Origin: an uncultured Rhodospirillaceae bacterium
Lineage (GTDB): Bacteria; Pseudomonadota; Alphaproteobacteria; GCA-2731375
Assembly (NCBI GenBank): GCA_964344935.1
Contig: CAYFPL010000001.1
Span: 1,276,303-1,340,302, forward strand
Direction: 5' to 3'
Length of the DNA: 64,000 bases
The notes under the pieces: model-generated
Databases searched by the model: none
Seen by the model: only the letters and a program-made list of their open reading frames with translations
Told to the model about the DNA's origin: nothing
Made by a program: the position numbers and the translations under genes
Part shown: in pieces, positions 39,636-60,232 of the stretch
Numbering within the stretch: the stretch's first letter is position 1
Layout: each line of letters begins with the position of its first letter

Positions 39636-39637
39636 GA

Positions 39638-41335: not shown

Positions 41336-42568
41336 TCACTCCTCCAGCTCGTCCAATACGGCCAGCATGATGCGAATTCCCGCGGCGATATCGGTCTCGC
41401 TGGTACGTTCCGCCGGGTTATGGCTTACGCCACCGTCGCTACGCAGAAAAATCATTCCTACATCGCAAAGTTCCGTCATGGCGGCGGCATCATGACCGGC
41501 GCCGCTGGTCATCCTGACGGGCTGAATGCCGCAGGCGGTTACCGCCCGTTCAATGGCATCCATCATATTGGGCGCACATGGGGCAGATGTCGCCTCGTGA
41601 AATACATTGATACGCGCCTCTGCTCCGCGCTTGTCCGCCGCGGCGCGAATGGCGCGGATGATGGCTGCGACCGCGTCTCGTCGCGACGCATCCTCCCTGG
41701 CGCGCACATCCACGGTAAAATTGACTTCACCTGGAATGACGTTGATGGCGCCAGGCGCAGTACGCATGATACCTACCGTCCCGACGACGTCTTCCATCCC
41801 GGCACAAATTTCCTCCACCGCCAACACGCCCTGGGCAGCCACCGTCAAGGCGTCCTTGCGCAAGGTCATGGGCACCGTACCAGCATGTCCCGCCTCGCCT
41901 GTAACGACGACAGACAACCGGGTCTGGCCATTGATTGCAGTGACGATGCCCGCCGGCAGGCCCAGGGATTCCAGTACCGGGCCCTGTTCGATATGCAGTT
42001 CCAGAAAGGCTTTCACGTCCTCGGGGCCGCGGGCCGCCTGTCCGATCTGCTCCGCATCCAGGCCGAAGTCCGAAAGGGCTTGGCGAAAACTGACCTCGTC
42101 GCCGTCGGTCCGCTCCAATGTCTCGGGATCCAATTTTCCGGCCAAGGCACGGCTGCCCAGATAGGTGGTGCCGAAACGAACCCCTTCTTCATCGCCAAAT
42201 CCTATGACCTCGATAGGGTAGGATTTCCGTTTTCCGGTCCGGGATAGGGCCTGGACACAGGCAATGCCGCACAAAACCCCCAGCATGCCGTCAAACTTGC
42301 CCGCATTGACCACCGTGTCCAAATGGGAGCCGATCAACAATGCCGGACTACCGGGCTGGGAGCCCTCGTATCGGCCGACGATGTTGCCGGCCGCATCCTG
42401 GCGGCTCTCCATTCCTGCGGCCGCCATCCATTCACCCACCAGTCTATTCACCCGGCGATGCTCGTCCGTCAGGTAGCGGCGTGTGAGGATGTCGGCGTCT
42501 TCACTCACTGCCGCCAGCTTGTCGATGCGCTGCATGACCTCGCAGGCCAATGCTTCAGCCGAATTCAT
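41336..42568 (-). CDS. allC: Allantoate amidohydrolase / N-carbamoyl-amino-acid hydrolase (M20 family)
   Basis: M20 AllC/HyuC family similarity (LIGSHLDTV, GFGDEEG). Start ATG 42568 (MNSAEALACEV). Confidence 0.75.
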   Translation of the reverse strand: MNSAEALACEVMQRIDKLAAVSEDADILTRRYLTDEHRRVNRLVGEWMAAAGMESRQDAAGNIVGRYEGSQPGSPALLIGSHLDTVVNAGKFDGMLGVLCGIACVQALSRTGKRKSYPIEVIGFGDEEGVRFGTTYLGSRALAGKLDPETLERTDGDEVSFRQALSDFGLDAEQIGQAARGPEDVKAFLELHIEQGPVLESLGLPAGIVTAINGQTRLSVVVTGEAGHAGTVPMTLRKDALTVAAQGVLAVEEICAGMEDVVGTVGIMRTAPGAINVIPGEVNFTVDVRAREDASRRDAVAAIIRAIRAAADKRGAEARINVFHEATSAPCAPNMMDAIERAVTACGIQPVRMTSGAGHDAAAMTELCDVGMIFLRSDGGVSHNPAERTSETDIAAGIRIMLAVLDELEE

Positions 42569-43430
42569 GCAGGGCCTCGTGGGAATTCTCGATGCGTGCG
42601 AGTCTGTTGCGACCCCGGGCACCCATTTCCCGCATGACCGCCATGGCGTGGAAATGCATTAGCGACATGACGCCGGCATATCGATCAAAGGCGTCCGCAC
42701 CACGTATGGGACAGCGAACAGTCCAATCGGCCGAACCGCTGCCGCCCGCATCCTGGTCAGTAAAGTAAAGGGTCGCCGCGCCCGCATCCCGTACCAAGGC
42801 CAGGGTTTCCGAGACGGCCCTGACACGACGACGGAAGCCGAGGAGAATGGCCATGTCCGTCTCGTTAAGGTCTGCCAACGATTCCGCCATTGTCTCGCCG
42901 CCCCGGGGCAGAAGATGCACATCATCGCGCACTTGAATCAGTTGCCAGCGCAGATAACCGGCCAGGTATTGGCTATTCCGCCAGCCGATCACGAATACCC
43001 GGTCCGCTTCGCAAATGGCCTTGATACTGGCGGCGAATGCGCCGGCATCGACGCCATCCAGAGATTGGGACAACAAAGCCGCGTCCTGGCGCAAATGATC
43101 GTGGGCCAATGTGCCGAAATCCTGATCGTCCCCGTCCATCTGATCCCGGTTCAACAGATACAGGGGCGACCCGGCCCTGGTATCGTCGCGGGCCGCCCGG
43201 CGCATGGCCTCAAACCCGGCATAGCCAAGCCGGTGGCACAACCGGGTCACCGCGGCCTTAGAGGCGCCGGCAAGCTGAGCCAGTTCGGTCGCGGAATAAC
43301 TGGCAATCTGCCCCGGAAAATCCATGATCAGGTCACCAACTTTGCGCTCGCTTTCCGGCAAGGCGCCATAGTGGGCACGAATACGGGATTCGAGCGCTGA
43401 CTCCAGGACTGGCGATTGCGGCTGGCTCAT
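42555..43430 (-). CDS. MurR/RpiR-family transcriptional regulator (HTH plus SIS domain)
   Basis: N-terminal HTH (ATELAQLAGASKAAVTRLCHRLGYAGF) and a C-terminal SIS sugar-isomerase-like domain. Divergent from the adenine deaminase gene. Confidence 0.8.
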   Translation of the reverse strand: MSQPQSPVLESALESRIRAHYGALPESERKVGDLIMDFPGQIASYSATELAQLAGASKAAVTRLCHRLGYAGFEAMRRAARDDTRAGSPLYLLNRDQMDGDDQDFGTLAHDHLRQDAALLSQSLDGVDAGAFAASIKAICEADRVFVIGWRNSQYLAGYLRWQLIQVRDDVHLLPRGGETMAESLADLNETDMAILLGFRRRVRAVSETLALVRDAGAATLYFTDQDAGGSGSADWTVRCPIRGADAFDRYAGVMSLMHFHAMAVMREMGARGRNRLARIENSHEALHEFG

Positions 43431-43479
43431 GGCTTGCTTTCAGGTAGCCGGGTATCCATGTGAAACCTAAACCAAAGGC

Positions 43480-43523
43480 AATTGAAATTACAATTTCAAT
43501 TTTCGTGATTTTGAAAACAAAAT
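43480..43523. promoter_or_regulatory. Two candidate operators in the divergent promoter: AATTGAAATT-ac-AATTTCAATT (43480-43501) and ATTTTG-aaaa-CAAAAT (43508-43523)
   Basis: Perfect inverted repeats read directly in the 138-bp AT-rich gap between the RpiR regulator and the adenine deaminase gene. Confidence 0.45.
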
Positions 43524-43598
43524 TTTATATCATGGTTTGGCTGTCCGGCACGAGGATAGTGACAGACTGTGGCTCAGGTGATTGGGGATCGACGACAG

Positions 43599-45308
43599 AT
43601 GGTTGACAACGCGGCGATCTTGGCCCGGCGAATTGATCAAGCCCTGGGCCGCGTGCCTGCCGATCTTGTTGTAAAGAACACCCGTTACCTGAATGTCATC
43701 GACGGCGCCATGGTGGAAGGCGATATCGCCATCGCCGGCGACACCATCGTCGGTGTACAGGCGGATTACCGGGGGAATCAGGAAATTGACGGCCGCGGTA
43801 AGGTGGTGGTGCCGGGTTTCATTGATACTCATGTCCATGTGGAAAGCACCTGCATCTCACCCTGGCAGTTCGACCAGGTGGTATTGCCCCGTGGCACCAC
43901 CACGGCAATCTGCGATCCCCATGAAATCTGCAACGTCTTGGGCACCAGAGGTCTGGAGTACTTCTTTTCTGCCTCGGAAAACCTGGTCATGGATCTCCGT
44001 GTCCAGCTTTCCAGTTGCGTACCGGCAAGCCACCTGGAAACCTCCGGTGCGGTCATGACGGCGGCTGATCTCCTCCCTTACAAGGACCACCCCAATGGCA
44101 TCGGCCTGGCCGAGTTCATGAATTATCCAGGCCTTCTGGAGAAGGACGGGGAGGTATTGGCAAAACTCGCCGCCTTTTTCGGCAGCCATATCGACGGCCA
44201 TGCACCCATGGTTTCGGGCCAAGACCTGAACGCCTATTGCGCCTGCGGCATCAAGAATTGCCATGAAAGCACGTCGCTTTCTGAAGCGGCCGAGAAGCTT
44301 TCGAAAGGCATGCAGGTGCTGATCCGGGACGGTTCCCTGTGCAAGGATGTGGTTACCCTGACTCCCCTGATCAATGATCTCACATCTCCCTTCCTTGCCT
44401 TCTGCACCGACGACCGCAATCCCCTGGATATCGCCGTGGAAGGCCATATGGATCATCTGATCCGCACGGCAATCGCCAACGGCGCGCCGCAAGGCGCGGT
44501 TTATCGGGCGGCAAGCTGGTCGGCGGCCCAGGGCTTCGGGCTTCGGGACCGCGGTTTAGTGGCGCCGGGATACCGGGCGGATCTGGTATTGCTGGACGAC
44601 GTCGCCGATTGCGCCGTCGCAGCCGTGATCCGCGATGGACAATTGGTGGATGAAGACGCCTTTTCCGAACATCGGCCTGAACTCTCTATCGGCCGCCGTT
44701 CCATCAAACTGGATCCAGTGGACCCGTCCATATTTGCGGTGCCGGCGCCTGGCCCCTCGGGTCCTGTCATCGGCTTGGTCCACGACGGGGTGATCACCCG
44801 CCATTTGACCATGGAACTTCCCTTCGCCGACGGCGTTCGCCTGCCCGATCCCGACAATGATGTTCTGAAAGTGGTGGTATTGAATCGCCACGGCGGCAAC
44901 CGGAATATCGGCCGCGGCTTCATCAAGGGATTCGGATTTCGGGATGCCGCGATCGCATCCAGCGTTGGCCACGACGCCCACAATGTCATCGTGGTCGGCG
45001 ACCATGACGGCGACATGGCGGTGGCGGTCAATCATCTGATCGGGATCGAGGGCGGTTTCGCGGTGGTAAAGGACGGGCAAGTGCTCGCCGATCTGCCCTT
45101 GCCGATCGCTGGTTTGATGAGCGACCGGCCAGCAGACGAAGTCGTGACGAAACTGCGGCGCCTGCGCGCCGCGGCCAAGGATATTGGCTGTCCGCTGCCG
45201 GAACCTTTTCTGCACATGGCTTTTCTACCCCTATGTGTAATACCGCACCTTAAAATCACCGACCACGGGCTTGTTGACGTGGATAAGTTTGAATTGATTG
45301 CTGCATAG
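43599..45308 (+). CDS. ade: Adenine deaminase
   Basis: Adenine deaminase family (VPGFIDTHVHVES, ~570 aa). Start ATG 43599; an alternative GTG is at 43569. Confidence 0.8.
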   Translation: MVDNAAILARRIDQALGRVPADLVVKNTRYLNVIDGAMVEGDIAIAGDTIVGVQADYRGNQEIDGRGKVVVPGFIDTHVHVESTCISPWQFDQVVLPRGTTTAICDPHEICNVLGTRGLEYFFSASENLVMDLRVQLSSCVPASHLETSGAVMTAADLLPYKDHPNGIGLAEFMNYPGLLEKDGEVLAKLAAFFGSHIDGHAPMVSGQDLNAYCACGIKNCHESTSLSEAAEKLSKGMQVLIRDGSLCKDVVTLTPLINDLTSPFLAFCTDDRNPLDIAVEGHMDHLIRTAIANGAPQGAVYRAASWSAAQGFGLRDRGLVAPGYRADLVLLDDVADCAVAAVIRDGQLVDEDAFSEHRPELSIGRRSIKLDPVDPSIFAVPAPGPSGPVIGLVHDGVITRHLTMELPFADGVRLPDPDNDVLKVVVLNRHGGNRNIGRGFIKGFGFRDAAIASSVGHDAHNVIVVGDHDGDMAVAVNHLIGIEGGFAVVKDGQVLADLPLPIAGLMSDRPADEVVTKLRRLRAAAKDIGCPLPEPFLHMAFLPLCVIPHLKITDHGLVDVDKFELIAA

Positions 45309-46236: not shown

Positions 46237-47847
46237 CTATCCGCGCAAGGCGCGCATTTGCTCCAAATAGCCGTCCGGGTCCAAGACGACATCGATCAGA
46301 CAGGGCCCTTGATCCGCCGCCGCCCCTTCGAGGGCCGCCGTTAATTCTGCCGTTGTACTGACCCGCCACGCCCGCAAACCGAAACCCTGGGCTGCGGTAG
46401 CGAAATCGGGGCGCTCCCAAATGAAGCCGAGATCAGGCAATTGCATTTCCTGCCGCTTTATATCGATCAGCGACAAGGCACCGTCGTTGAAAACAATAAC
46501 CGACACGTTCGCGCCTGTTTGAGCCGCAGTGACCAATTCGCCCATGCACATCATCAAACCACCGTCCCCGGTCATGGCGACGGCACCGCGGTCAGGGTCG
46601 TGCAAAGCGGCCGCGACCGCGGCGGGCAAGGCAAAGGCCATGCTGGCCAGGCCGTTAGATATCAAGACATCATAGGGCGCGGCGGCAGGCCAAAATGCAA
46701 CAGCCGAAAACATATGCGCGCCCGCATCGACCGCCAGACGCGGCCGCCCGTCAAAAGCCGCCACTGATCGTTTCACCACTTCCACCGGTGTCAGTTCGGG
46801 GCGGTCCTTAAAGGCCATGGCGTCGAAGAAATTGCTCCTATGATAGGCGATCTCCTCTGGCGTCCAATCGCTTGGCGGGACGTCTTCAATCAAGCTGCTG
46901 ACGCCATCAGCGATGGCCCCATAAAGACCTTGGTCGGGGATCAAATAGTGTTTGTCGTGACGCACGGCACCGAGATCCAAGACAGGCGCACTGTAGGCCC
47001 AGGGTTTGCGGATGAGCTCGACCGGATCCAGCCCCGCCAGAATGATCAGGTCCGCCTGCGAGACACAAGGATATTCCGCCTGTCCACCTGTGAAGATGCC
47101 GGCGAAGTTCGGATGATCATCGGGGATCACGCCCTTCGCCATGTAAGTGACAAACCCCGGTGCTCCCGATTGTTCCAAGAGGCGCCGGACACTGGCGCTG
47201 TTACCGCCAACCGCAGCTTCCAAACCGCAGACGATCACCGGCCGCCGGGCCCTCAGAAGCAGATCGCGCGCACCGCCCCTATCGCCGATGATCGGCGCTG
47301 CCTCGAACGAAACCGGTGGCGGCACAACATTAAGCCTGCGCTTGGCCGTGGCGCCGGTCAGTTCGATGTAGCCCGGTCCAACCGGCGGTCGGTGGAGTGT
47401 CTGCAACAGTCCGTCAAGTTCCGCGGCCGGGTCCGTACCGGAAAGCGTGGCGATGGCTTTCGTGATGGGTTCAAGAACCGCCGCCTGATCGAAGTACTGA
47501 TGGGAAACGTAGTCCCGCTCGTCAGCGCCGAAGCCGTCGGAGACGAAAACCACCGGCGCCCGATCCAGATGGGCGGAGGCAACACCGTTGGTCCCCGACG
47601 TCAGACCCGGACCTTTGGTGGCCAGGGCCAAACCAGGGGCGCCGCTTAACCAGGCGGTGACGGCTGCCATGATGGCGCCCGAATCTTCCCTCCGGCTGAG
47701 CACGAAGTCCAAACCGGCACATCTGCCGGCATCGATCAGATCCATGCTACTGCCGCCGCCGGGCACACCGAAGAACCGTTGCAGGCCCCGCGTCTTCAGA
47801 CGGTCGATCAGCAACTCGGCGACGGTAACTTCCGTTTTGGCCTTCAT
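46237..47847 (-). CDS. Thiamine-diphosphate-dependent enzyme (acetolactate synthase / benzoylformate decarboxylase-like)
   Basis: 536-aa ThDP-enzyme-like protein. The GDGG ThDP-binding motif is present (AMTGDGGLMM). Confidence 0.8.
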   Translation of the reverse strand: MKAKTEVTVAELLIDRLKTRGLQRFFGVPGGGSSMDLIDAGRCAGLDFVLSRREDSGAIMAAVTAWLSGAPGLALATKGPGLTSGTNGVASAHLDRAPVVFVSDGFGADERDYVSHQYFDQAAVLEPITKAIATLSGTDPAAELDGLLQTLHRPPVGPGYIELTGATAKRRLNVVPPPVSFEAAPIIGDRGGARDLLLRARRPVIVCGLEAAVGGNSASVRRLLEQSGAPGFVTYMAKGVIPDDHPNFAGIFTGGQAEYPCVSQADLIILAGLDPVELIRKPWAYSAPVLDLGAVRHDKHYLIPDQGLYGAIADGVSSLIEDVPPSDWTPEEIAYHRSNFFDAMAFKDRPELTPVEVVKRSVAAFDGRPRLAVDAGAHMFSAVAFWPAAAPYDVLISNGLASMAFALPAAVAAALHDPDRGAVAMTGDGGLMMCMGELVTAAQTGANVSVIVFNDGALSLIDIKRQEMQLPDLGFIWERPDFATAAQGFGLRAWRVSTTAELTAALEGAAADQGPCLIDVVLDPDGYLEQMRALRG

Positions 47848-49940
47848 GTGCGCCTCTCGACCACGAAGTTCAGCGCGCCGTCGATCACACCGGCAAAATC
47901 CGGCGGTAGAACCAGGGTGGATTCTACTTCTTCTAAAATCGCTGGCCCTTCTATCTCCGTGCCGGGCGTCAAGGTGTCTCGATTGAAAACGGGGCTATCC
48001 AAATAGCCCATATCGGAGCCAAACCAGACACGGCGGCTGGCTCGCTTCTCTAGCGGACGATCCGACGCGCCGGCGCCGGCAAGGGCATCCTGCAACGGCG
48101 GCCGCGGGCCGCTGACGACCACGCGCCAGGTAATTGTTTCCGCCGCCATTGCCTCCGTACGGCCAAAACGGCGGCGATAGCTGTCGGCGAAACCGGCGGC
48201 AACGGCGTCTTCATTCCGATCGCCGATCCAGGCTTGGTCGACTGGCACCTCTACTTCGTATCCCTGGCCGATGTAACGCATCATGATGGAAACCCGAGTG
48301 GTGATATCTTTCGGGGCCACGCCCGCATCGCGTACTAAAATTTCAGCTTGCTTTGCCATGTTGTTGACCATGTCACGGGCCGCCGCCCAATCCACCTGCG
48401 CCAGCGGCGCCATATAAGCCTGGGCCAATTCGAACGAAATGGGCGCCCCCAGCATGCCGATGGCCGAGGCGACGCCGGCGCCGATAGGGCTGATCAGCCG
48501 GTCGATGCCTATCTTTCGCGCCATGGCACAGACATGGACCGGACCGGCACCACCGATAGGCACCAAGGTAAAGCGTTCCGCATTCAGGCCTTTTTCGATG
48601 GCATGGATGGCCGCCGCCTGGGCCATGTTGCCGGTTACCGTTTCGTGGACGCCCCAGGCTGCCTCTTCGATCGAGATGCCGAGGGGATCGGCCAATTGCT
48701 CTTTGATTGCAGTCGCGGCGCCCTTGGCGTCGAGGTGCATTTCCCCACCAAGAAAATTTTCGGGATCGAGATAGCCCAGGATCAAATCCGCGTCCGTCAC
48801 AGTAGGTTCTCGGCCGCCCAGGCCATAGCAGACCGGCCCAGGGTCGGAACCGGCACTATCCGGACCCACCTGAATCAGGCCCAGACGGTCGATGCGCGCG
48901 ATGCTCCCACCCCCCGCTCCAATTTCGATCATGTCGATGGCTGGAATCTGCAAGGGCAGGCCGCTGCCTTCTGCGAAACGGAAGACGCGGGCCACCTCGA
49001 ACGTGGCGGAACGCTGCGGCTCGCCATTCTCGATCATGCAGGCCTTGGCCGTGGTGCCGCCCATATCGAAGCACAGCAAATCGTCCGTATCCGACATAGC
49101 ACCATACAACACTGCCGCCTGCGCGCCCGCTGCCGGACCCGACTGCACCAGACGGATGGGAAACTGGGTCGCCGTTTCCGCCGTGACGAGCCGGCCATCC
49201 GAGAGGATCAGTAGCAAATCCCTGGTGAAGCCCATTTCCGAAAGGCCGCTTGCCAGGCGCGCGACATAAGCCTTGAAAATGGGATGTACATAGGCGTTGG
49301 CCACGGTGGTGGACGTACGTTCATACTCCCCCATCTCGGGGCTGACGGCGGCGGAGAGCGAAATCGACAGATCCGGCGCCAATTGCCGCAACCTCTCAGC
49401 AACCGCATGTTCATGGCCAGGATTGCGATAGGCATGCAGCAGGCAGACGGCAACGGACTGAACGCCGGTATCGACGAATTCCTTGGCGATGTCGTCCAGT
49501 TCTGACAGATCGACGGGCGTAATGGCCGCCCCTTGCGCGTTCATCCGTTCGGTGATCTCGCGCCGTGCCGGCCGGCCGGCAATAGGCTGGGGCATCTCGA
49601 TCGACAGATCGAACAGGTCGTAGCGCCATTCCCGTCCAATCTCGAGTACATCGCGGAAGCCCTTGGTGGTAATCAAACCGGTCGTAACACCCTTGCGTTC
49701 GATCAGGGCATTGGCCACCAGGGTGGTGCCGTGGATCACCGCCTCCACCTGGTCGGGGCGGACACCGCTGTCAGTCAGGATGCGACCGATACCGTCCATG
49801 ACTGCGCGGGATGGATCGTCGGGCGTGGTCAGCAATTTGGTCCGGACGGTCCGCCCGCCATTCAAATTCCAAAGCACAATGTCGGTGAATGTGCCGCCGA
49901 TATCGACGCCGATGCGATGGCCGCTGCCACTAACCGCCAT
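47844..49940 (-). CDS. Hydantoinase A / oxoprolinase family protein (third A paralog)
   Basis: RIGVDIGGTFTDIVL motif. Start ATG 49940. Stop overlaps the start of the downstream ThDP enzyme gene. Confidence 0.85.
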   Translation of the reverse strand: MAVSGSGHRIGVDIGGTFTDIVLWNLNGGRTVRTKLLTTPDDPSRAVMDGIGRILTDSGVRPDQVEAVIHGTTLVANALIERKGVTTGLITTKGFRDVLEIGREWRYDLFDLSIEMPQPIAGRPARREITERMNAQGAAITPVDLSELDDIAKEFVDTGVQSVAVCLLHAYRNPGHEHAVAERLRQLAPDLSISLSAAVSPEMGEYERTSTTVANAYVHPIFKAYVARLASGLSEMGFTRDLLLILSDGRLVTAETATQFPIRLVQSGPAAGAQAAVLYGAMSDTDDLLCFDMGGTTAKACMIENGEPQRSATFEVARVFRFAEGSGLPLQIPAIDMIEIGAGGGSIARIDRLGLIQVGPDSAGSDPGPVCYGLGGREPTVTDADLILGYLDPENFLGGEMHLDAKGAATAIKEQLADPLGISIEEAAWGVHETVTGNMAQAAAIHAIEKGLNAERFTLVPIGGAGPVHVCAMARKIGIDRLISPIGAGVASAIGMLGAPISFELAQAYMAPLAQVDWAAARDMVNNMAKQAEILVRDAGVAPKDITTRVSIMMRYIGQGYEVEVPVDQAWIGDRNEDAVAAGFADSYRRRFGRTEAMAAETITWRVVVSGPRPPLQDALAGAGASDRPLEKRASRRVWFGSDMGYLDSPVFNRDTLTPGTEIEGPAILEEVESTLVLPPDFAGVIDGALNFVVERRT

Positions 49941-51561
49941 AAACTTCGTCCGCTTTCTCTTCACTCAGCAGACCGCGTCGGATGTCCTGCTGTACAGCCT
50001 CGGCTGATCGCTTGGCAGGAGGGTGCAACCCACCCCCGCCGGGGGTTTGAAACGTGGCCACGTCGCCTGGCTGAAGATCTAACCGTGCCTTGGCGGGAAT
50101 GCTTTGTCCGTTGACCAGGTCCCGACCCGGCGCGCCGTCTTGGCCACCCAACAAGCCACGCGGTGGGAATTGAATGCGTTCGTGCCGAATGGTCATGGTT
50201 ATGGGCGCATCGGCGACGGATTTGAACGATAGCCGTTGGGCGTCACCGCCTCGGAAGCCGCCCTCGCCCGCACTGTCGGGCACGAAGCATTTCTCGGTCA
50301 CCAGCAAAGGCGCCTGGTTCTCGAACAACTCGATGGGCTGGTTCGATACATTCGACGGGAAACTCAGGCAACCAGGGCCGTCGCCGTCAGGCCGGGCCCC
50401 GTGGCCGCCGTTCATGAAAAACATCTTCACGAACCCTTCGCCACTGTCCGGCTGCCGGCCCTTGAAATAGACATTCCAAAGTGGCGAACCGGATTCAGCG
50501 ATGACCCGGTCGGGCAGCACGGAACTCAAAGCCCCGAATATTGCCGGCGGGGCATAGTGGCCCGAAAGATGCCGCCCCCAGACTGGTGCTGGCCGTTTGG
50601 CGTTCAGAAGACAGCCTTCGGGAGCCCGGATGGTAACCGCCTCGAATGATCCGCTGTTGTTCGGCGCACCAGGATCCAACAGGCATTTCAGGGCGAAGCA
50701 GGAATAGGCCTGGGTGTAGTTCATCACGCTGTTGATGGGATACTTGATCTGGAGGGAGGTGCCGGCGAAGTCCACATCGATTGTTTCGCCGTCGATGGTG
50801 ACCGTGCAGCGGATGGTCAATGGTTCATCGAAGCCGTCGATCTGAAATTCATCGCTGTAGGCGCCGTTGGGCAGATCACGGATCACCGCCCGCATGCTGG
50901 CGGCGGAGCGGCCAATGATTTCGGCGATGACGGCTTCGAAATCATCCAGGCGTTCTTCTTCAAGCACCTCCAAGACCTTGCGCTGACAATCATGATAGGC
51001 GGCAAACTGCGCCCGAATGTCACCAAGCGTCTCTGCAGGCGCGCGCAGGTTCTCGGTCAGAAAATCGATCACCAGTTCGTTTTCAACGCCCCCCTCGACG
51101 ATCTTGCAGATGGGAATGCACAGGCCCTCTTCGAATGAATCCTGGGCGCTGGGCGAGGGTGCGCCGCCAATATCAACGCTATGGGCCGTGCTGCCGGCGA
51201 AGGCAATCAGTCGGCCGTCCCGGAACAGCGGGCAGATCATGGAGATATCGTTCAGGTGTCCGGTGCCGATCCAAGCGTCATTAGTGATAACGACATCGCC
51301 GGGTCGGAGGCTTTCGGCCGGAAACTTCTCCAACACCGCTGCCAGGGTCCGGGGCAAGGTACCGATGAAACTGGGAATGGAACGCTTTGACTGGACAAAC
51401 TGCCGGCCGCGGATATCAAGCAGGCTGAATGCCATATCATAGTTGTCGCGCACGACAGTGGAAAATGCCGCCCTGATGAAAGTTTCCGAAACCTGGTCAA
51501 CGATGCCATTCAGGCGCTGCCAGATCAGGCCCAGGCGAATGGGGTCCATGGCCTCAGTCAT
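49930..51561 (-). CDS. Hydantoinase B / oxoprolinase family protein (third B paralog)
   Basis: 543 aa, hydantoinase_B similarity (NDAWIGTGHLND, HSVDIGG). Here B precedes A, the opposite order to the 1878-5557 pair. Confidence 0.85.
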   Translation of the reverse strand: MTEAMDPIRLGLIWQRLNGIVDQVSETFIRAAFSTVVRDNYDMAFSLLDIRGRQFVQSKRSIPSFIGTLPRTLAAVLEKFPAESLRPGDVVITNDAWIGTGHLNDISMICPLFRDGRLIAFAGSTAHSVDIGGAPSPSAQDSFEEGLCIPICKIVEGGVENELVIDFLTENLRAPAETLGDIRAQFAAYHDCQRKVLEVLEEERLDDFEAVIAEIIGRSAASMRAVIRDLPNGAYSDEFQIDGFDEPLTIRCTVTIDGETIDVDFAGTSLQIKYPINSVMNYTQAYSCFALKCLLDPGAPNNSGSFEAVTIRAPEGCLLNAKRPAPVWGRHLSGHYAPPAIFGALSSVLPDRVIAESGSPLWNVYFKGRQPDSGEGFVKMFFMNGGHGARPDGDGPGCLSFPSNVSNQPIELFENQAPLLVTEKCFVPDSAGEGGFRGGDAQRLSFKSVADAPITMTIRHERIQFPPRGLLGGQDGAPGRDLVNGQSIPAKARLDLQPGDVATFQTPGGGGLHPPAKRSAEAVQQDIRRGLLSEEKADEVYGG

Positions 51562-52492
51562 TGTAGACCGGGCTTAGCCAATGTTCATGCCCCGCTGCGC
51601 GGCCCCGGACAATATCGTCGAACCGTGCCTGCAGGCGTCTGGTCACCGGCCCCGGCACACCTTCGCCAACGGGACGGCCGTCGAAGGCTGTCACGGGACT
51701 GATTTCCTGCCCGGTACCGCAATAAAAGGCCTCTTCTGCCAGATACAGCTCCGTGCGGCCGATGGGCCGCTCGGCTGTTTCTATGCCCATGGGTCCCGCG
51801 ATATCCAGGATGGATTGCCGCGTGATGCTTTCCAATATGCCGCTGTTCACATCCGGCGTGAGAAACACGCCGTCGCGCATGAGGAACAGGCAACCTCCAG
51901 GGCCTTCGCTGATGGTTCCGTCGTTGTTCAGGATCACGGCCCCACCGGCGCCATGGCGCTTGGCCTCTAATCCGGCAAGGCGGCTGTTGAGGTAGTTGGC
52001 GGAGGCCTTGATACGCGGCGGCGAGGCATTCTCGCTATTGCGGGACCAGGACGAGGTGATGAAAGTCTGGCCCTTTTCGAAAGTCGCGACTCGAGGTCGG
52101 GGCCGGCAGATCACCGTGCTGCCCAGCGGACCCGTAGCCGTCATGGACCCCCAATCGTCCACATAGACCTGCAGGCGGATATAGGTGTCCTCGCGGAATT
52201 CGTTGGCCTTTAGCGTCGCCATGATGTCGGCGGCGAAGACCTCGGAAGAGGGCGGGTCATCCAGTTCCAACAAATTCATGGAGAATTGCAGGCGTTTGAG
52301 ATGATCGTCGAGACGGAAAATGTAGAGATCCTGCGCGGCTTCGTTCCAGTAGGCGCGAAAGCCTTCGAACACCAGGGCGGCGAAGGTCAGTCCCGGCGCC
52401 ATGACAGAAATCTTGGCGTCTTCGTAAGGGACAAGGGCGTGGTTCTGCATCACCCATTTGATCTGGGCACGGCTATCAGCAGTTGTACTCAC
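51554..52492 (-). CDS. Class IV aminotransferase (branched-chain amino acid / D-amino acid aminotransferase family)
   Basis: The N-terminus aligns with IlvE-type proteins (IKWVMQNHALVPYEDAKISVM...VFEGFRAY). GTG start at 52492; an alternative ATG is at 52450. Confidence 0.8.
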   Translation of the reverse strand: MSTTADSRAQIKWVMQNHALVPYEDAKISVMAPGLTFAALVFEGFRAYWNEAAQDLYIFRLDDHLKRLQFSMNLLELDDPPSSEVFAADIMATLKANEFREDTYIRLQVYVDDWGSMTATGPLGSTVICRPRPRVATFEKGQTFITSSWSRNSENASPPRIKASANYLNSRLAGLEAKRHGAGGAVILNNDGTISEGPGGCLFLMRDGVFLTPDVNSGILESITRQSILDIAGPMGIETAERPIGRTELYLAEEAFYCGTGQEISPVTAFDGRPVGEGVPGPVTRRLQARFDDIVRGRAAGHEHWLSPVYND

Positions 52493-52496
52493 TGGC

Positions 52497-53423
52497 TCAG
52501 AGGTCCCAACTGACGAATATAGCCCGTAAAGCCGTTACCAGGGCGAGAGGCTGGTCGATGGCGATATGGTGCTGGGCGTCGGGGACGCAGATCATCGGAT
52601 TTGCGGCATCGAATATGGGCGCCATATATTCCGCTACGTCAGGCCCGAATATGGCACTGTCCGCGCCATATATCATCGCCTTGCGGCAGGTGAGGCCGCG
52701 CAAATAGTCTTCCAGCGGCTCGTCATGCAGACCTGCAACCCTGGCGGACGGGTCGAACTTCCAAGTATAGCCCCCTTCACATGGTTTCAGGGATTGGCGC
52801 GCAATATGTTCGACGATGTATTCGTTCTCGCAGTATTGCGGCGGAATAGTGCGAAAGCGGTAGACCATTTCCTCCGGATCTTCAAAGACCCGGTTCGGCG
52901 GCCGTTTTGGTGGATCGTAAAAACGACGTTTCTCGCCAGTCGGCCGATTTTCGGGCCGTAGAGGCGAATCTATGATGACCGCGCCGGCCATCTGATCGGC
53001 ATATTTGTTGCCATAGCACATGGTCATGAAACCGCCGAAACTGTGCCCCACGATGATTGGTTTTTCGCCCAAATTCGCAGCCTCCAGCACGGCGGCAATT
53101 TCCGGCACGTGAAATTCGCTGCCATAGAATTCGCGCCAGCCACTATCGCCCATGCCGGATAGGTCGATCGCCGCGACAGGCCTGTCGGAAGAGAAAAACG
53201 GTGCGATGAACGACCACCACTGGGCGTGGCAGCCCGCGCCATGAATGAACAGAATGCCCGTCCGTTCGGATACCTCCGGACCCCAGCGTAGATAATTGAT
53301 CTCGCAGTCCATCACCTGTACCTGGTGAGAGGTAGGCGTGTCTTGTAATGCCTGTTCGAACCAATAGGGCGGCTCCACGGGGGGCGGTTCCTGCGGCGGG
53401 GGCTGCGGCGGTTCCTCGTACAT
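52497..53423 (-). CDS. Alpha/beta-fold hydrolase
   Basis: Nucleophile-elbow GHSFGG and HGAG oxyanion motifs. Pro-rich N-terminus. ATG 53423 chosen; the track ORF starts at a TTG at 53489. Confidence 0.7.
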   Translation of the reverse strand: MYEEPPQPPPQEPPPVEPPYWFEQALQDTPTSHQVQVMDCEINYLRWGPEVSERTGILFIHGAGCHAQWWSFIAPFFSSDRPVAAIDLSGMGDSGWREFYGSEFHVPEIAAVLEAANLGEKPIIVGHSFGGFMTMCYGNKYADQMAGAVIIDSPLRPENRPTGEKRRFYDPPKRPPNRVFEDPEEMVYRFRTIPPQYCENEYIVEHIARQSLKPCEGGYTWKFDPSARVAGLHDEPLEDYLRGLTCRKAMIYGADSAIFGPDVAEYMAPIFDAANPMICVPDAQHHIAIDQPLALVTALRAIFVSWDL

Positions 53424-53533
53424 AACGGTTGTCCAATTAATTGAGTGATCTGTGACGACATACACTGCACAGGGATCGAATTTGGTCAATATGACACTAT
53501 GTTAGTGTAAAAGCATATTCAGGAGAGCTTGGC

Positions 53534-54886
53534 ATGTCAGAAGCGGCGGCGCATGAGGATACAGGGGTTTCGGTGGAGCAGAATTCCTTTCTGCAAGGCA
53601 ACTTTGCCCCGGTGGAGGAGGAAGTCACGACTTCTGAGCTCGTCGTCGAAGGTGCCATTCCAATGGAACTGAACGGCGCCCTGTTACGCGACGGCCCCAA
53701 CCCCATCGCGCCCGGCCCGGGCCACCATTGGTTCCAGGGTGACGGCATGGTGCATGGGATCAACCTGCGCGACGGCCAGGCCCTTGGCTACCGCAACCGC
53801 TGGGTCCGCACCAAGCAGGTAGAGGAACTCAAAGGCTTTACCGCGGCGCCAACCAGTCCTCATCAGCCCATGCAGCAGGGCTCGGGCAGCGTCAACGTCA
53901 TCGGCCATGGGGGGCGCATTCTGGCACTGCCGGAAGTCGGCCTGCCCTGGGAACTGGATGGTGAGCTCAATACCGTCGGCCAGTGGGATTATGACGGCGC
54001 CTTACGCAGCAACATGACCGCGCATCCGAAAATTGACCCCATCAGCGGCGAGCTGGTCTTCTTTGGCTACGATTTCGGCAACATCAGCCTGCGTTACCAC
54101 GTCGCCGACCGCGCCGGAGAGTTAATACGCACGGTGGAGATCGAGAAACCTATCCCCACCATGATGCATGATTTCGGGGTTACCGAGAGCAGGGTCATAT
54201 TCATGGACCTGCCCGTCGCCTTCAGCCTGGAAATGGCCATGGCCGGCAAGGGGCTGCCCTTCCATTGGCGGGACGACATGCCCGCCCGGCTGGGCTTATT
54301 GCCGCGCGATGCGACGTCCGACCAAGTACAATGGTTCGAAATCGACACCTGCTTCGTTTACCATCCGCTGAACGCCTATGACGACGGCGACGAGATCATC
54401 TTCGATGTGGTCCGCCACGACCGCACCTTCGTCAAGGGCCGGCTGGAGGACGGCGGCGAGATCAGGCTGGAACGCTGGACCATCGACCCGGCCAAAGAGC
54501 GGGTGAGCGCCGAGGTGATAAGCGACCGCAGCCAGGAATTCCCCCGCGTCGACCCCCGTGTGGAGTGCCGGGCGCACCGGTTTGGATACGGTGTTGATTT
54601 CGAGTTGAAATCAGGGCCGGGCGGGCTGTTGAAACATGACCTGGAGAACCGCACCGCCATCCTGCACGACACCGGCCCGGCGGGCGCGGCCAGCGAGGGC
54701 GTCTTCGTCCCGGTTGGAGATGGCGAGGACGAAGGCTATGTATTGTCCGTGGTCTATGATGGTGATACTGGCGGCAGCCACCTTCGCATCATCGATGCTC
54801 AGGATTTTGCCGGCCCGCCCCTGGCCAAGGTCCACCTGCCACAACGGGTGCCGTTCGGGTTTCATGGCAACTGGATCGCAGGCTGA
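53534..54886 (+). CDS. Carotenoid cleavage oxygenase family protein (lignostilbene-alpha,beta-dioxygenase-like, RPE65 family)
   Basis: 450 aa with conserved His ligand contexts (HPKID, FVYHPLNAY, FHGNW C-terminus). RBS AGGAGAG. Confidence 0.85.
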   Translation: MSEAAAHEDTGVSVEQNSFLQGNFAPVEEEVTTSELVVEGAIPMELNGALLRDGPNPIAPGPGHHWFQGDGMVHGINLRDGQALGYRNRWVRTKQVEELKGFTAAPTSPHQPMQQGSGSVNVIGHGGRILALPEVGLPWELDGELNTVGQWDYDGALRSNMTAHPKIDPISGELVFFGYDFGNISLRYHVADRAGELIRTVEIEKPIPTMMHDFGVTESRVIFMDLPVAFSLEMAMAGKGLPFHWRDDMPARLGLLPRDATSDQVQWFEIDTCFVYHPLNAYDDGDEIIFDVVRHDRTFVKGRLEDGGEIRLERWTIDPAKERVSAEVISDRSQEFPRVDPRVECRAHRFGYGVDFELKSGPGGLLKHDLENRTAILHDTGPAGAASEGVFVPVGDGEDEGYVLSVVYDGDTGGSHLRIIDAQDFAGPPLAKVHLPQRVPFGFHGNWIAG

Positions 54887-54964: not shown

Positions 54965-55444
54965 ATGAACTTTTGGGACACATTGCTAAACCCCGACCGG
55001 GATGAGTTTCCTAACCGGACGGTCGTCGTCAACGCGGCCAACTTGCTGGAAGTTGGCGAGTTTCAATTCCTACAACTGGCGTTCGCCCATTGGCACGGCC
55101 GGGATATGACACCGGCGGAAGCGAACGAAGTGTTTACCTCTTTCATGATCCGCTCGGAAGTGCCTACCTGGGCGCTGCAATATGCACGCGATATCCGCAC
55201 GCTGGACCAAAACAGCGAACTCGACGGCAACGATCCCAACTATCACCGCTACGATGTGGTCAAGACGCCGCCTACGCCCATGGGCCCGCAAGCCGGCTTT
55301 CTGGCTTCGGTCGTTTTCCTGGTCGGAACACTCGGCGGCGCGTTGGCCCTGGCCAGCGATGTAGCCAACGATCAATCGCCGTGCAGCGGACAGTTCCCGC
55401 CCTGTGTGGCCACCAGCGATATTCCCGACTCCCGTTCGCAATAA
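54965..55444 (+). CDS. Hypothetical protein with C-terminal hydrophobic segment
   Basis: 159-aa ORF with a good RBS (GGAGGTAGG). Predicted TM helix near the C-terminus (FLASVVFLVGTLGGALALA). No family recognised. Confidence 0.5.
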   Translation: MNFWDTLLNPDRDEFPNRTVVVNAANLLEVGEFQFLQLAFAHWHGRDMTPAEANEVFTSFMIRSEVPTWALQYARDIRTLDQNSELDGNDPNYHRYDVVKTPPTPMGPQAGFLASVVFLVGTLGGALALASDVANDQSPCSGQFPPCVATSDIPDSRSQ

Positions 55445-56599: not shown

Positions 56600-56640
56600 A
56601 AAAAAGGGGGGAAGGGCCATGCCCTTCCCCCGAAATTTTC
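56600..56640 (-). terminator. Rho-independent terminator (11-bp GC stem, 3-nt loop, T6 tract on the minus strand)
   Basis: GGGGGAAGGGC-CAT-GCCCTTCCCCC at 56607-56631. Flanked by AAAAAA (56600-56605) on the plus strand, which is CTTTTTT on the minus strand. Lies about 50 nt downstream of the SSS transporter stop. Confidence 0.65.
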
Positions 56641-56683: not shown

Positions 56684-58666
56684 CTACGAACCCGCTGTTT
56701 GCGGTTGCGCATCGCCAATGTCTTCGGTGAGAACCTCGATCTCCTTCGAGGGAACCGACGACATCTCCATCTTGTAGGCCAGGAACCACATCATCCCGAC
56801 GCCTAGGATCCAGAACAGGATCTGCCAGGCCCAGATTGACGGGATACCGAAAGTCCAGCCTTCGACGCCGGCATCCGGCGCGCCAAAGATGGTGTTGCCG
56901 ATGACCGCGCCCGGGCCGATGCCGAAGAACAGCCAGGCCAGGGTGATGATCCAGGCAACCGGGACCAGCTTGCGCTTGTCCTCGGAGATCGCCGCATGCT
57001 CGCGCAGGAAGTCATGATACACCATGCGATGGGAACGTGACTTTTCATCCTGCGTCAGGGCCGAGACCACGATGCAGACGGCGAGGTTGAAGATCATGCC
57101 CCAACCGGCCGAATGAATGGTCCAAGGCCAACGACCCCAGGGCAGATCGCCGTATTTGCCGTCACCGTTGTAGAACAACGTATCCAAGATCGAGAGGCCG
57201 AAGTTCTCGGAGAAGATTACGGCAATAAGGCCAACCGCCAGACCCCAGGTCGCACCCTGGCGGGTGATCCATGGGAACCAGCAGATCGCCGCCAGCGATG
57301 GCCACATCTGGAAGCCGAAGGCAACCGCAAGGCCGCCCAGCAACACCAGGGCATCGGCCGAGAACGTTGCCACCAATAACGCTGCGATGACAATGAAGCA
57401 AACACCCAAACGCCCGAACAGCTTCTGCGTGGTGTGGTCGGCTGTGGGGTTCAGATAGCGCTTGTACAGATCGCGGGTCAGCATGCCGCCGGCCGTTGAC
57501 ATATACGCCGCGCCCGTCGACTGCATGGCCGCGAGGGCACAAACTGCCAACAGACCCACGAACCATGGTGCCGCATCACCGATCAGGTTGATGTAATGGG
57601 GTACCAGGCCCGCCTGCTTGTTCGCCGTCAGATCGGGGATCACCGTCGAGATGCCGGCCGCCTCGCCCACGGCTGGATTGGCGCCCAGGAAATGGGCCCC
57701 CATGCCTTGTGCCGCGGTGAAGAAGAACAGGATCAGGCCGATGCCGAACGAAGAGGCCCAGACCTGCTGCGGTGCGAACGGCCGCGGGTCGGTGTTTGAG
57801 AACGCCCACATGGAGAAGGCCGGTGCCGACTGGATGCCCATCAGGGCGAACATGTAGGTCAGGCACATGATGCCGGTCCACAAACCGCCCGTCGGTGTTT
57901 CCACCCCAAGGCCGGCAGTGAATTGGATCACACCGGGTATCGCCAGATAGGCATTATGACCCGCCGGTGTCGCCCCCCACCTTCCAAGTTCAGGGTTCTT
58001 GCCCATCGCGCCCATGGCTTCGTTGAAGGCGCCAAAGCCGCCCAAGAAGCTATAGGCAATGAAGCCGATGGAGACGATACCGAAGGCAAGGAGAACACAT
58101 TGCAAGGTGTCCACGTAGGCCACCGCTCTGAGCCCCCCGGTGGCGACATAAATCAGCACCACGGCCGACAGCACCCACATGCCGATGTCCCTGGTGATCA
58201 TGTCGTCGGTCAGGACGTTAAACAGGAAGCCCGAAGCGCCCAACTGCACGCCCAGGTACGGAATGGAGAACAGCAGCGCGACCAGGACCACGAGAATGCG
58301 GATTGCATCCCCCTGGAAATAGTCGGACAGCATTTCGCCCGGCGTGACATAGCCAAAGCGCTTGCCCAACATCCATTGCCGCTTCAAGAACATGACGCCG
58401 GTAAATGGAATGGTGATGGTGTAGAAGGACGCATAGGCGTACTGAAACCCATCACGATAAATCAGGCCCGGATGGCCCATGAAGGTCCAGCCGGAAAACG
58501 ACGTCGCCGTCGCCGCCAGAACAAAGACCCAAATCGATAATCTGCGCCCGGCAATGAAATAGTCAGACGCTGTCTTCGCGGCCATCGCGCTTTTCACACC
58601 CCAGAAGATGCAATAGCACCAATAGAGTGCCACAAACACGAAGAGCCAAACGATTTTGGCTTCCAT
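56684..58666 (-). CDS. Sodium:solute symporter (SSS) family transporter
   Basis: 660 aa, many TM helices, SSS-family similarity. Start ATG 58666 immediately after a strong GGGAGG RBS. The track ORF is extended to 58750. Confidence 0.85.
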   Translation of the reverse strand: MEAKIVWLFVFVALYWCYCIFWGVKSAMAAKTASDYFIAGRRLSIWVFVLAATATSFSGWTFMGHPGLIYRDGFQYAYASFYTITIPFTGVMFLKRQWMLGKRFGYVTPGEMLSDYFQGDAIRILVVLVALLFSIPYLGVQLGASGFLFNVLTDDMITRDIGMWVLSAVVLIYVATGGLRAVAYVDTLQCVLLAFGIVSIGFIAYSFLGGFGAFNEAMGAMGKNPELGRWGATPAGHNAYLAIPGVIQFTAGLGVETPTGGLWTGIMCLTYMFALMGIQSAPAFSMWAFSNTDPRPFAPQQVWASSFGIGLILFFFTAAQGMGAHFLGANPAVGEAAGISTVIPDLTANKQAGLVPHYINLIGDAAPWFVGLLAVCALAAMQSTGAAYMSTAGGMLTRDLYKRYLNPTADHTTQKLFGRLGVCFIVIAALLVATFSADALVLLGGLAVAFGFQMWPSLAAICWFPWITRQGATWGLAVGLIAVIFSENFGLSILDTLFYNGDGKYGDLPWGRWPWTIHSAGWGMIFNLAVCIVVSALTQDEKSRSHRMVYHDFLREHAAISEDKRKLVPVAWIITLAWLFFGIGPGAVIGNTIFGAPDAGVEGWTFGIPSIWAWQILFWILGVGMMWFLAYKMEMSSVPSKEIEVLTEDIGDAQPQTAGS

Positions 58667-60135: not shown

Positions 60136-60232
60136 GTTGGTTACCCAGATACAACGTCCGATGGCGGGCCTTGCGATAGCCCTTGCTGCGTATCACAATA
60201 ACACCAATCACCTCGCAACCGGGAAGGTCGAT

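Follow-up and report, generated by a model that had tools for sequence, protein, structure and literature searches.

To our knowledge, the substrates known for ATP-dependent lactamases are few, namely 5-oxoproline, N-methylhydantoin, caprolactam and valerolactam, agropinic acid and 2-oxo-indoleacetate. 5-Oxoprolinase, represented by OPLAH in eukaryotes and by OplA/OplB in bacteria, converts 5-oxoproline to glutamate in an ATP-dependent reaction, while AgaF/AgaG, the lactamase for agropinic acid encoded by octopine-type Ti plasmids, and IaaC/IaaE, from the anaerobic breakdown of indoleacetate, are HyuA/HyuB (HyuAB) homologues that open lactams. The hyu cluster of Pseudomonas sp. NS671 reportedly consists of hyuA, hyuB, hyuC and hyuE. 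Conversion of an amino acid to a 2-oxo acid, an aldehyde and finally an acid is carried out by the arginine transaminase pathway of Pseudomonas aeruginosa (AruH/AruI/KauB) and by the Ehrlich pathway. PspHyuA/B and IaaCE have been listed among the members of the HyuAB family (PMC8453981), and in Pseudomonas jessenii GO3 caprolactam is degraded by CapAB, an omega-aminotransferase, a 6-oxohexanoate dehydrogenase and an adipate beta-oxidation cluster (PMC6061476, PMC8453981). The downstream set of that cluster comprises an aldehyde dehydrogenase (ALDH), a CoA-transferase, a thiolase, a 3-hydroxyacyl-CoA dehydrogenase (3HCDH), an acyl-CoA dehydrogenase (ACAD) resembling butyryl-CoA dehydrogenase, an enoyl-CoA hydratase (ECH) and an IclR regulator (PMC6061476). 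Here we describe an operon in a 64,000-nucleotide stretch of contig CAYFPL010000001.1 from an uncultured Rhodospirillaceae bacterium (hereafter the window, in whose numbering positions are given), in which genes for a HyuAB-type enzyme are joined to genes for a class IV aminotransferase (AT4) and a thiamine diphosphate (ThDP) enzyme.

We found that AT4, HyuB, HyuA and the ThDP enzyme are encoded by a conserved module, which we read as a putative ATP-dependent lactam or hydantoin catabolic cluster combined with a transaminase-decarboxylase route. Full-text literature searches on the gene combination, on hyuAB expression in marine settings, on routes through 6-oxopipecolate or oxoprolinase and on the degradation of diketopiperazines found no published description of such a module, in agreement with a preliminary description of this DNA, made from the sequence alone, which had held that the gene combination is not a described pathway. 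The core probably degrades a ring-shaped amide acid.

As in the caprolactam pathway, the lactamase is an ATP-dependent HyuA/HyuB-family enzyme of two subunits, which shares its ATP motifs and Asp-His-Asp-His metal site with CapAB, and an aminotransferase acts next, and the downstream functions (ALDH, CoA activation, ACAD, ECH, 3HCDH, thiolase and IclR) are found beside the module in other genomes. The two systems differ in several respects. AT4 is of fold type IV and resembles branched-chain aminotransferases (BCATs), whereas the caprolactam enzyme is a fold-type I omega-aminotransferase (subgroup II, now class III); the module has an obligatory acetolactate-synthase-like ThDP member; and its transporters suggest an anionic substrate. 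HyuA and HyuB do not reach the caprolactamase equivalogs of NCBIfam (CapA 485 and CapB 201, each against a cutoff of 1000), and HyuB has no adjacent cysteines, the position aligned with the vicinal Cys-Cys of CapB being SF. Furthermore, the amine freed from caprolactam is terminal and its transamination gives an aldehyde directly, whereas the route proposed below would need a decarboxylation.

5-Oxoprolinase belongs to the same family and converts an alpha-carboxy lactam to an alpha-amino dicarboxylate; glutamate, however, needs no route through a transaminase, a ThDP enzyme, an ALDH and an ACAD, and the partner genes therefore make 5-oxoproline itself a less likely substrate than one of its homologues or derivatives. 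In the classical hyu cluster, too, an ATP-dependent HyuA/HyuB enzyme opens a ring and the product is an amino acid. According to the list of open reading frames (ORFs) and Pfam, the operon contains neither an N-carbamoyl-amino-acid amidohydrolase (HyuC, of M20 or nitrilase type) nor a hydantoin racemase; unlike the classical cluster, the module has a transaminase and a ThDP enzyme, and the linked genes showed no NCS1 hydantoin permease. With the AruH/AruI/KauB and Ehrlich pathways the module has in common an aminotransferase, a ThDP decarboxylase of acetolactate-synthase-like or PDC-like type and an ALDH, but it would make its amino acid by ATP-dependent ring opening, its aminotransferase is of BCAT type and its ThDP enzyme lies outside the AruI subfamily. 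AgaF/AgaG and IaaC/IaaE are HyuAB-family precedents for lactams that carry a carboxylate; they have other partner enzymes, with no transaminase-ThDP pair.

Gene order and the conserved core

We confirmed that the genes for an alpha/beta-hydrolase (ABH), AT4, HyuB, HyuA and the ThDP enzyme form a single, tightly packed operon on the minus strand, divergent from the gene for an RPE65-type oxygenase. All six ORFs of the preliminary description are present in the ORF list at its coordinates, family assignments in the Pfam scan were strong, and the Pfam and NCBIfam scans agree with the name it had given to each of the five operon products. The features are as follows.

46237-47847, minus strand: ThDP enzyme, 536 aa; Pfam TPP_enzyme N, M and C; last gene of the operon; core
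47844-49964, minus strand: HyuA, 706 aa from GTG 49964; Hydant_A_N, Hydantoinase_A and Hydant_A_C; core
49930-51561, minus strand: HyuB, 543 aa; Hydantoinase_B, 475 bits, profile positions 1-516 of 519; core
51554-52492, minus strand: aminotransferase AT4, 312 aa; Pfam Aminotran_4; core
52497-53423, minus strand: ABH, 308 aa from ATG 53423; Pfam Abhydrolase_6/1; first gene of the operon; accessory
53424-53533, no strand: divergent intergenic region, 110 bp; presumed to hold the promoters of the operon and the oxygenase gene
53534-54886, plus strand: oxygenase, 450 aa; Pfam RPE65, 393 bits, profile positions 1-468 of 469; probably a lineage-specific neighbour

Read from the sequence, the spacer between ABH and AT4 is 4 nt, AT4 and HyuB overlap by 8 nt (ATGACTGA), and HyuA and the ThDP gene overlap by 4 nt (ATGA); the overlap between HyuB and HyuA is 11 nt if HyuA starts at ATG 49940 or 35 nt if it starts at GTG 49964. 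The mechanically delimited ABH ORF reaches back to TTG 53489, but a start at ATG 53423 gives a protein of 308 aa, in agreement with the 311-aa gene called in relatives, and leaves a divergent gap of 110 bp. That the five minus-strand genes are one unit, as previously proposed, is borne out by these overlapping or abutting junctions and by the retention of the grouping in relatives. The divergent gap has one sigma-70-like match per strand (53540-53512 on the minus strand, 53491-53519 on the plus strand), but the number of such matches (5) is not above the shuffled expectation of 4.0 ± 1.7, and in the promoter and terminator scans generally matches were no more frequent than in shuffled sequence.

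For comparison, 80 genome loci and several metagenome contigs were fetched, and 83 non-redundant related loci were counted (numbered L001 onwards). Homologues of all window genes were placed in these loci by tblastn, and the denominators used here are the loci evaluable for each gene. HyuA is adjacent to HyuB in 71 of 72 loci. AT4 is adjacent in 58 of 75 and present anywhere in the locus, which for AT4 means within 10 kb of hyuB, in 68 of 75; the corresponding figures for the ThDP gene are 56 and 61 of 66. ABH lies directly upstream of AT4 in 12 of 71 loci and anywhere in 13 of 71, and the oxygenase gene is found anywhere in three of 65. This grouping of the genes is far beyond what chance would produce. 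The other flanking genes of the window, which encode a TroA-like binding protein and an adenine deaminase, occur in none of the related loci.

There are many HyuB homologues with identities of 67-100%, the majority of them from marine metagenomes and from metagenome-assembled genomes (MAGs) of Rhodospirillaceae or Alphaproteobacteria; at 67% identity or more they fall into more than 120 distinct 90%-identity clusters, mainly from marine metagenomes. The core AT4-HyuB-HyuA-ThDP was found in Alphaproteobacteria, Gammaproteobacteria and one Chloroflexota MAG, at HyuB identities of 57-86%. Its carriers include SAR116, Rhodospirillales, Hyphomicrobiaceae, Rhodobacterales, Woeseiaceae, Porticoccaceae and Ca. 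Foliamicus besides that MAG, and among cultured strains Jannaschia seohaensis DSM 25227 (NZ_UETC01000003.1, 447972-469585), alpha proteobacterium BAL199 (ABHC01000009.1) and Antarctobacter heliothermus SMS3. The last of these has a distant variant, HyuB-HyuA-ThDP-SDR-BCAT (SDR, short-chain dehydrogenase/reductase), on plasmid pSMS3-1, with identities of 42% for HyuB, 33% for the ThDP enzyme and 42% for AT4. A plasmid search with HyuB returned only homologues of at most 46% identity, Antarctobacter among them; those on Agrobacterium plasmids are about 41% identical, and a Bradyrhizobium match lies in a different context (CoA-transferase, ECH). Among loci below 64% HyuB identity, AT4 is 4-10 kb away or absent in 17 of the 26 that could be evaluated, and HyuB-HyuA-ThDP is the tightest sub-unit. 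Because the core is kept across phyla and has a distant version in Antarctobacter, we consider the real unit to be AT4-HyuB-HyuA-ThDP, and to be old. As judged from these comparisons, the conserved unit is the four-gene core, with ABH and the oxygenase outside it.

Several loci depart from the arrangement in the window. ThDP genes are missing downstream of HyuA in L010 and L014. In L003 transposase genes (IS110, DDE_3, rve) lie around the module at 961-4571 and 17019-18158, which is consistent with mobility of the cluster. Four loci (L032, L039, L045 and L051) have, directly upstream of ABH-AT4-HyuB-HyuA-ThDP, genes for a TAXI-TRAP transporter and a class I/II aminotransferase together with a second HyuA/HyuB pair in divergent orientation; this arrangement suggests a more elaborate substrate or two ring openings. 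An Rfam scan of the window and three loci found no element in the window at the gathering score; the lone match was a TPP riboswitch in L038 (3331-3425, minus strand; 67 bits, gathering score 54), which precedes four genes on the minus strand, lies about 2.5 kb from the SAR116 module and probably belongs to an unrelated thiamine transport or biosynthesis operon.

Predicted activities of the core enzymes

HyuA has the three Pfam domains of its family and all three ASKHA ATP-site motifs, defined for CapA as DxGGTxTD, DxGGT and GxxPGP (PMC8453981), in the forms DIGGTFTD (residue 21), DMGGT (300) and GSDPGP (372). In a HMMER alignment to 6yra_B, residues D42, H102, D105 and H127 of HyuB align with Asp41, His99, Asp102 and His124 of CapB, the essential metal-binding tetrad of that enzyme (PMC8453981), and all four columns are invariant in an alignment of 12 clade members. 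The nearest solved relatives of HyuB are N-methylhydantoinase (7hk5, 203 bits) and caprolactamase (6yra, 167), ahead of acetophenone carboxylase (107) and acetone carboxylase (60). HyuAB is predicted to lie on the hydrolytic side of the family, as an ATP-dependent cyclic-amide hydrolase.

A non-hydrolytic HyuAB, which would carry out ATP-dependent carboxylation or phosphorylation of the enolate of an AT4-derived ketone or 2-oxo acid, in the manner of acetone and acetophenone carboxylases, while the ThDP enzyme acted as a lyase or carboligase, appears improbable to us. AT4 does stand first in the gene order, the tightness of HyuB-HyuA-ThDP relative to AT4 fits such a scheme, and the closest solved relative of AT4 (6gkr, from Thermobaculum terrenum) is a member of a BCAT group with some amine-transaminase activity; the family moreover includes carboxylases with the same ATP and metal sites (PMC8453981). 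However, HyuA and HyuB score far better against hydrolytic members, and the acetone and acetophenone carboxylase equivalogs were not reached (ApcC 281 against 1500, ApcA 180 against 1250, ApcD 90 against 1500). With 543 aa, HyuB resembles CapB (581 aa) and not the acetone carboxylase alpha subunit (776 aa; carboxylase subunits of HyuB type have about 680-780 aa), and the ORF list shows no gamma, epsilon or other small-subunit gene in the operon. The ALDH, ACAD and beta-oxidation partners are also explained more simply by decarboxylation to an aldehyde.

AT4 narrowly passes the ilvE_I model TIGR01122 (254.1 bits, cutoff 245.55) and misses NF005146 (258.7, cutoff 279), and its closest solved structures are the BCATs 6gkr, 6h65 and 5ce8. 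Aligned with the reference E. coli BCAT, whose catalytic Lys aligned correctly, it keeps K159, Y164, E193, R40, R59, Y95, R97, G256 and T257 (E. coli numbering). The catalytic and alpha-carboxylate residues are kept in the window AT4 and in 54-56 of 56 module-linked homologues. On these residues, AT4 is a fold-type IV, BCAT-like enzyme with its alpha-carboxylate site intact. The side-chain pocket differs from that of E. coli IlvE, with an invariant Arg in place of W126, a three-residue deletion at Y129 and Ala in place of V109.

The ThDP enzyme has the three-domain architecture of the POX/ALS group and a GDG-X24-ND cofactor motif at residue 427 (GDGGLMMCMGELVTAAQTGANVSVIVFND). The Glu of its RREDSG segment aligns with the Glu of the Antarctobacter homologue, its cofactor-activating role being assigned by position only. 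Among solved structures it comes nearest to catabolic acetolactate synthases (E = 1e-51), but it reaches no NCBIfam equivalog cutoff (PRK08322, the best, 272 against 509; AlsS 216 against 510), and it scored 154 bits against the AruI model NF005712 (cutoff 500). We infer that it is an acetolactate-synthase-like, putative 2-oxo-acid decarboxylase. A plasmid search with this protein gave only two matches, both from Variovorax and without HyuAB. In Variovorax paradoxus VAI-C (CP063167.1, 716703-738325; L091), a homologue with 46% identity is encoded directly after an ALDH, in a cluster that also holds three TctC proteins, an SMP-30 lactonase, an alpha-hydroxy-acid oxidase and CoA-transferases. 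This cluster is itself uncharacterised. It shares with the module the ThDP enzyme linked to an ALDH, and TctC, but lacks HyuAB and an aminotransferase, for which the lactonase and the oxidase stand in, with O in place of N. As an apparent lactone counterpart of the module, it supports by analogy the placing of this ThDP subfamily among 2-oxo-acid decarboxylases that feed an ALDH.

The narrow pass of AT4 against TIGR01122, and the fact that the best models for the ThDP enzyme are acetolactate synthases, would also suit ordinary IlvE and IlvB paralogues of branched-chain amino-acid biosynthesis that happen to lie beside a 5-oxoprolinase, a reading to which we give almost no credence. The ThDP enzyme remains below every acetolactate synthase cutoff and AT4 fails NF005146; the ORF list shows no ilvN-like, ilvC or ilvD gene near the operon; the AT4 and ThDP genes overlap the hyu genes and co-vary with them across phyla; and the linked genes (LysR, transporters, ALDH, ACAD) are catabolic. 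A housekeeping IlvE with its own promoter, which the preliminary description had named among the findings that would speak against it, is not what we found: the 4-nt spacer, the 8-nt overlap with hyuB and the linkage to hyuB in 68 of 75 loci support an AT4 dedicated to the operon rather than a free-standing IlvE.

Partner genes and a candidate catabolic route

All ORFs of the related loci were clustered and the recurrent families were then annotated; GC-rich shadow ORFs produced by this clustering (families 9, 15, 18, 19, 24 and 35) were dropped by inspection, with no formal test. A TctC/TctB/TctA tripartite tricarboxylate transporter (TTT) and a divergent LysR regulator lie directly upstream of AT4 in 24-28 loci. 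Other loci have TAXI-TRAP, DctPQM-TRAP or MFS transporters, and in the clade of the window an SSF symporter lies nearby. TTT and TRAP binding proteins recognise carboxylates. A short-chain ACAD is present in 22 loci, usually directly after the ThDP gene and in most of the lower-identity loci, an ALDH in 16, an ADP-forming acyl-CoA synthetase in five, and an ECH and an SDR in several; an HpcH/HpaI-type 2-oxo-diacid aldolase adjoins the ThDP gene in five. In the Rhodobacterales loci L082 and L060, AT4-HyuB-HyuA runs on into genes for an ACAD, a PaaH-type 3HCDH, an ALDH, a thiolase and an ECH; the 3HCDH passes NF006124 (606, cutoff 508) and the thiolase passes the 3-oxoadipyl-CoA thiolase equivalog TIGR02430 (669, cutoff 597). 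In the published caprolactam pathway the same enzyme set handles adipate (PMC6061476). One ACAD residue was examined as a possible equivalent of Arg84 of 3-sulfinopropionyl-CoA desulfinase and rejected, the aligned residue being Asp. In the gammaproteobacterial loci L063-L085 a 651-aa protein recurs, with a CxxCH haem-binding-like motif (seen by eye in a representative) and a beta-propeller resembling Vgb lyase and SMP-30; the module is often surrounded by two or three copies of it, and genes for TonB-dependent receptors, an isochorismatase-like hydrolase and a class III aminotransferase accompany them. In L004 and L005 the module is also flanked by a luciferase-like monooxygenase, a PALP enzyme and a TAXI-TRAP transporter.

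We tentatively favour, at somewhat less than an even chance, a catabolic operon for a carboxylate-bearing cyclic amide, which would follow the logic of the caprolactam pathway with one extra step. In the route that we propose, HyuA and HyuB would use ATP to open a stable lactam with a carboxylate on its nitrogen-bearing carbon, such as a homologue of 5-oxoproline (for example, 6-oxopipecolate or 7-oxoazepane-2-carboxylate) or a derivative, and would release an alpha-amino dicarboxylic acid. The BCAT-like AT4 would pass the amino group to a 2-oxo-acid acceptor and leave a 2-oxo-dicarboxylate, which the ThDP enzyme would decarboxylate non-oxidatively to an omega-oxo acid. An ALDH, an acyl-CoA synthetase, an ACAD and dicarboxylyl-CoA beta-oxidation would complete the degradation, their genes presumably lying elsewhere in the genome of the window. 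ABH would add a lineage-variable hydrolysis, for example by cutting a second amide or by freeing the ring acid where it is conjugated as an ester or amide. We infer each reaction, the order of the steps and the substrate class from gene order, translational coupling, motifs, conservation of the core and the identity of the partners, which were observed directly.

Because the amine carbon would have borne a carboxylate, the product of transamination would be a 2-oxo acid and not an aldehyde. An AT4 of alpha-amino-acid type and carboxylate transporters point to such a 2-oxo acid, from which a ThDP decarboxylase would be needed to reach an aldehyde; this need would account for the ThDP gene being the most faithful partner of hyuBA. 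The dicarboxylyl-CoA beta-oxidation genes of Rhodobacterales point in turn to an alpha-amino dicarboxylate, and hence to an alpha-carboxy lactam. The earlier suggestion that the ThDP enzyme might decarboxylate a 2-oxo acid formed by the lactamase and the transaminase gains from the linked ALDH, acyl-CoA synthetase, ACAD and beta-oxidation genes. The suggestion, from the same source, of an omega-lactam logic (caprolactam or valerolactam) fits poorly, given the BCAT-type AT4, transporters of carboxylate families and a ThDP enzyme that would be superfluous on an omega-lactam route.

The proposed route needs to be interpreted cautiously, as several observations weigh against it. No ALDH, ACAD or TTT gene lies beside the operon within the window, and the fusion with beta-oxidation genes is confined to a few Rhodobacterales loci. 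The best structural matches of the ACAD are butyryl-CoA dehydrogenases and not glutaryl-CoA dehydrogenase, and the ACAD family is heterogeneous in its catalytic-base motifs, for which reason we draw no substrate inference from it. The invariant Arg at the W126 position of AT4 was considered as proof of an acidic substrate and rejected; the characterised BCAT of T. terrenum (6gkr) shares this Arg, so that no conclusion on the substrate is drawn from it. Natural seawater sources of six- and seven-membered alpha-carboxy lactams are not established. Lastly, the interchangeable hydrolase fits a substrate with two amides, such as a hydantoin or a cyclic dipeptide, equally well.

This hydrolase varies in both presence and fold. 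The window ABH has the nucleophile motif GHSFG at residue 126, reaches no NCBIfam model at its cutoff, and has only remote esterases as closest solved structures (E = 2e-13). It precedes AT4 in the window and in 11 other loci, two of which have tandem copies (L009 and L010, about 48-53% identical to the window ABH); in L014 a single copy lies further upstream of AT4. In close relatives ABH is replaced by an Amidohydro_3 protein before AT4 (L003) or by a PF00144 serine hydrolase directly after the ThDP gene (L008, L016 and L018), and in other clades an MBL-fold protein (SAR116) or an isochorismatase-like protein (gammaproteobacterial loci) is found. In L003 an Asp/Glu-racemase-family gene follows the ThDP gene, and AMDase/EutA-like genes occur in six loci. 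As far as these replacements indicate, ABH is an interchangeable accessory outside the core.

Whereas a carboxylase-type HyuAB, IlvE/IlvB paralogues and a link to the divergent oxygenase (see below) are less likely, a two-amide substrate (a hydantoin or other ureide, a cyclic dipeptide or a pyroglutamyl conjugate) is a serious rival, even if we hold it unlikely. HyuAB would then open a 5-substituted hydantoin, another cyclic ureide or a diketopiperazine, and the accessory hydrolase would cut the resulting N-carbamoyl amino acid or linear dipeptide; a branched-chain-like amino acid would continue through an Ehrlich-type route of BCAT, ThDP decarboxylase, ALDH and acyl-CoA. An in-operon hydrolase of varying fold (ABH, Amidohydro_3 or PF00144) is near-universal at HyuB identities of at least 77%, and the MBL-fold and isochorismatase-like proteins of other clades, the racemase-family gene of L003 and the AMDase/EutA-like genes can be read in the same way. 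The BCAT type of AT4 agrees with it, as does the ACAD, which is closest to short-chain enzymes and has in one subgroup an IVD-type base position. A 2013 paper reports the enzymes that hydrolyse diketopiperazines as unidentified at that time (PMC3852281). On the other hand, many loci have no hydrolase beside the core (for example, L023, L036 and L041), hydantoins and diketopiperazines are neutral whereas the transporters are of carboxylate families, and the thiolase and 3HCDH of Rhodobacterales are of dicarboxylyl-CoA type. Nor does the operon contain an M20 or nitrilase-type carbamoylase; the M20 enzyme of the window (41336-42622) lies 3.6 kb past the end of the operon, beyond two plus-strand genes, and passes the cutoff for allantoate amidohydrolase as part of a purine-catabolism block (see below).

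A broader proposal is possible but doubtful. The module would constitute a widespread and so far unrecognised marine route for an abundant ring amide, with a new lactamase specificity and a new ThDP 2-oxo-diacid decarboxylase; the candidate substrates would be a six- or seven-membered alpha-carboxy lactam, a pyroglutamyl conjugate or a cyclic dipeptide, and the swapped hydrolase would adapt the core to conjugates. Were the substrate identified, a ring compound with nitrogen in the dissolved organic matter of the sea would gain a defined sink, and three enzymes (lactamase, transaminase and 2-oxo-diacid decarboxylase) with possible use in making or recycling nylon-type monomers would become available.

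The divergent oxygenase and neighbouring genes

The oxygenase has a full-length RPE65-family Pfam domain, and among curated models it scores best against NF052295, an apocarotenoid 13,14-cleaving dioxygenase (427.5 bits, below the cutoff of 675). The lignostilbene dioxygenase equivalogs were not reached (221 against 800 and 206 against 650), and the likeness to lignostilbene dioxygenases that had first been suggested gives way to the higher-scoring apocarotenoid model. We found the oxygenase beside the module only in the nearest clade, at HyuB identities of at least 84%; it is absent from all 54 evaluable loci below 78% HyuB identity and from eight of 11 above. Orthologues with 78, 70 and 67% identity adjoin MFS or TetR genes, with no hyu genes there. 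An ABH beside one distant orthologue (L090) was considered as a link to the window ABH and rejected, the two hydrolases being unrelated.

The preliminary description had suggested that the operon's substrate comes from an aromatic or polyene compound cut by the oxygenase, a reading on which all six genes would serve one pathway. The divergent arrangement over a shared intergenic region of 110 bp invites this idea, the four nearest relatives (L001/L015, L002, L006 and L013) retain it, and a PhyH-family dioxygenase and a luciferase-like monooxygenase occur in the wider neighbourhood of the nearest clade. Those relatives are, however, syntenic over more than 10 kb and are therefore not independent evidence for the link. 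Co-occurrence in three of 65 loci, the unrelated contexts of the orthologues and the unrelated ABH near the L090 orthologue all speak against it, and cleavage of a carotenoid or stilbene yields nitrogen-free aldehydes or ketones, hence no lactam. Comparative genomics thus largely refutes this idea, which we regard as very improbable, and removes a misleading tie to carotenoid or stilbene cleavage. The oxygenase is probably a lineage-specific neighbour and not a member of the module.

Beyond the ThDP end of the operon, a purine-catabolism block (35003-45308) encodes XdhC, XdhB, XdhA, a hydroxyisourate hydrolase, an ArgE/DapE-type deacylase, an allantoate amidohydrolase (546 bits, cutoff 479), an RpiR regulator and an adenine deaminase; the genes scanned included no recognisable allantoinase. 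HyuAB was considered as an ATP-dependent allantoinase for the block, a reading that was dropped because none of the relatives keeps the block next to, or in synteny with, the hyu module. On the other side, a 159-aa protein without a Pfam or NCBIfam match and with a hydrophobic stretch near its C-terminus is encoded on the plus strand at 54965-55444; the nearest relatives retain it, with 63-72% identity, as the gene immediately after the oxygenase. A strong terminator-like hairpin follows at 56607-56631 on the minus strand. Genes for an SSF-family symporter (688 aa), an SfnG/RutA-like luciferase-type monooxygenase and a PhyH-family dioxygenase occupy 56684-61081 and are syntenic in the nearest clade only.

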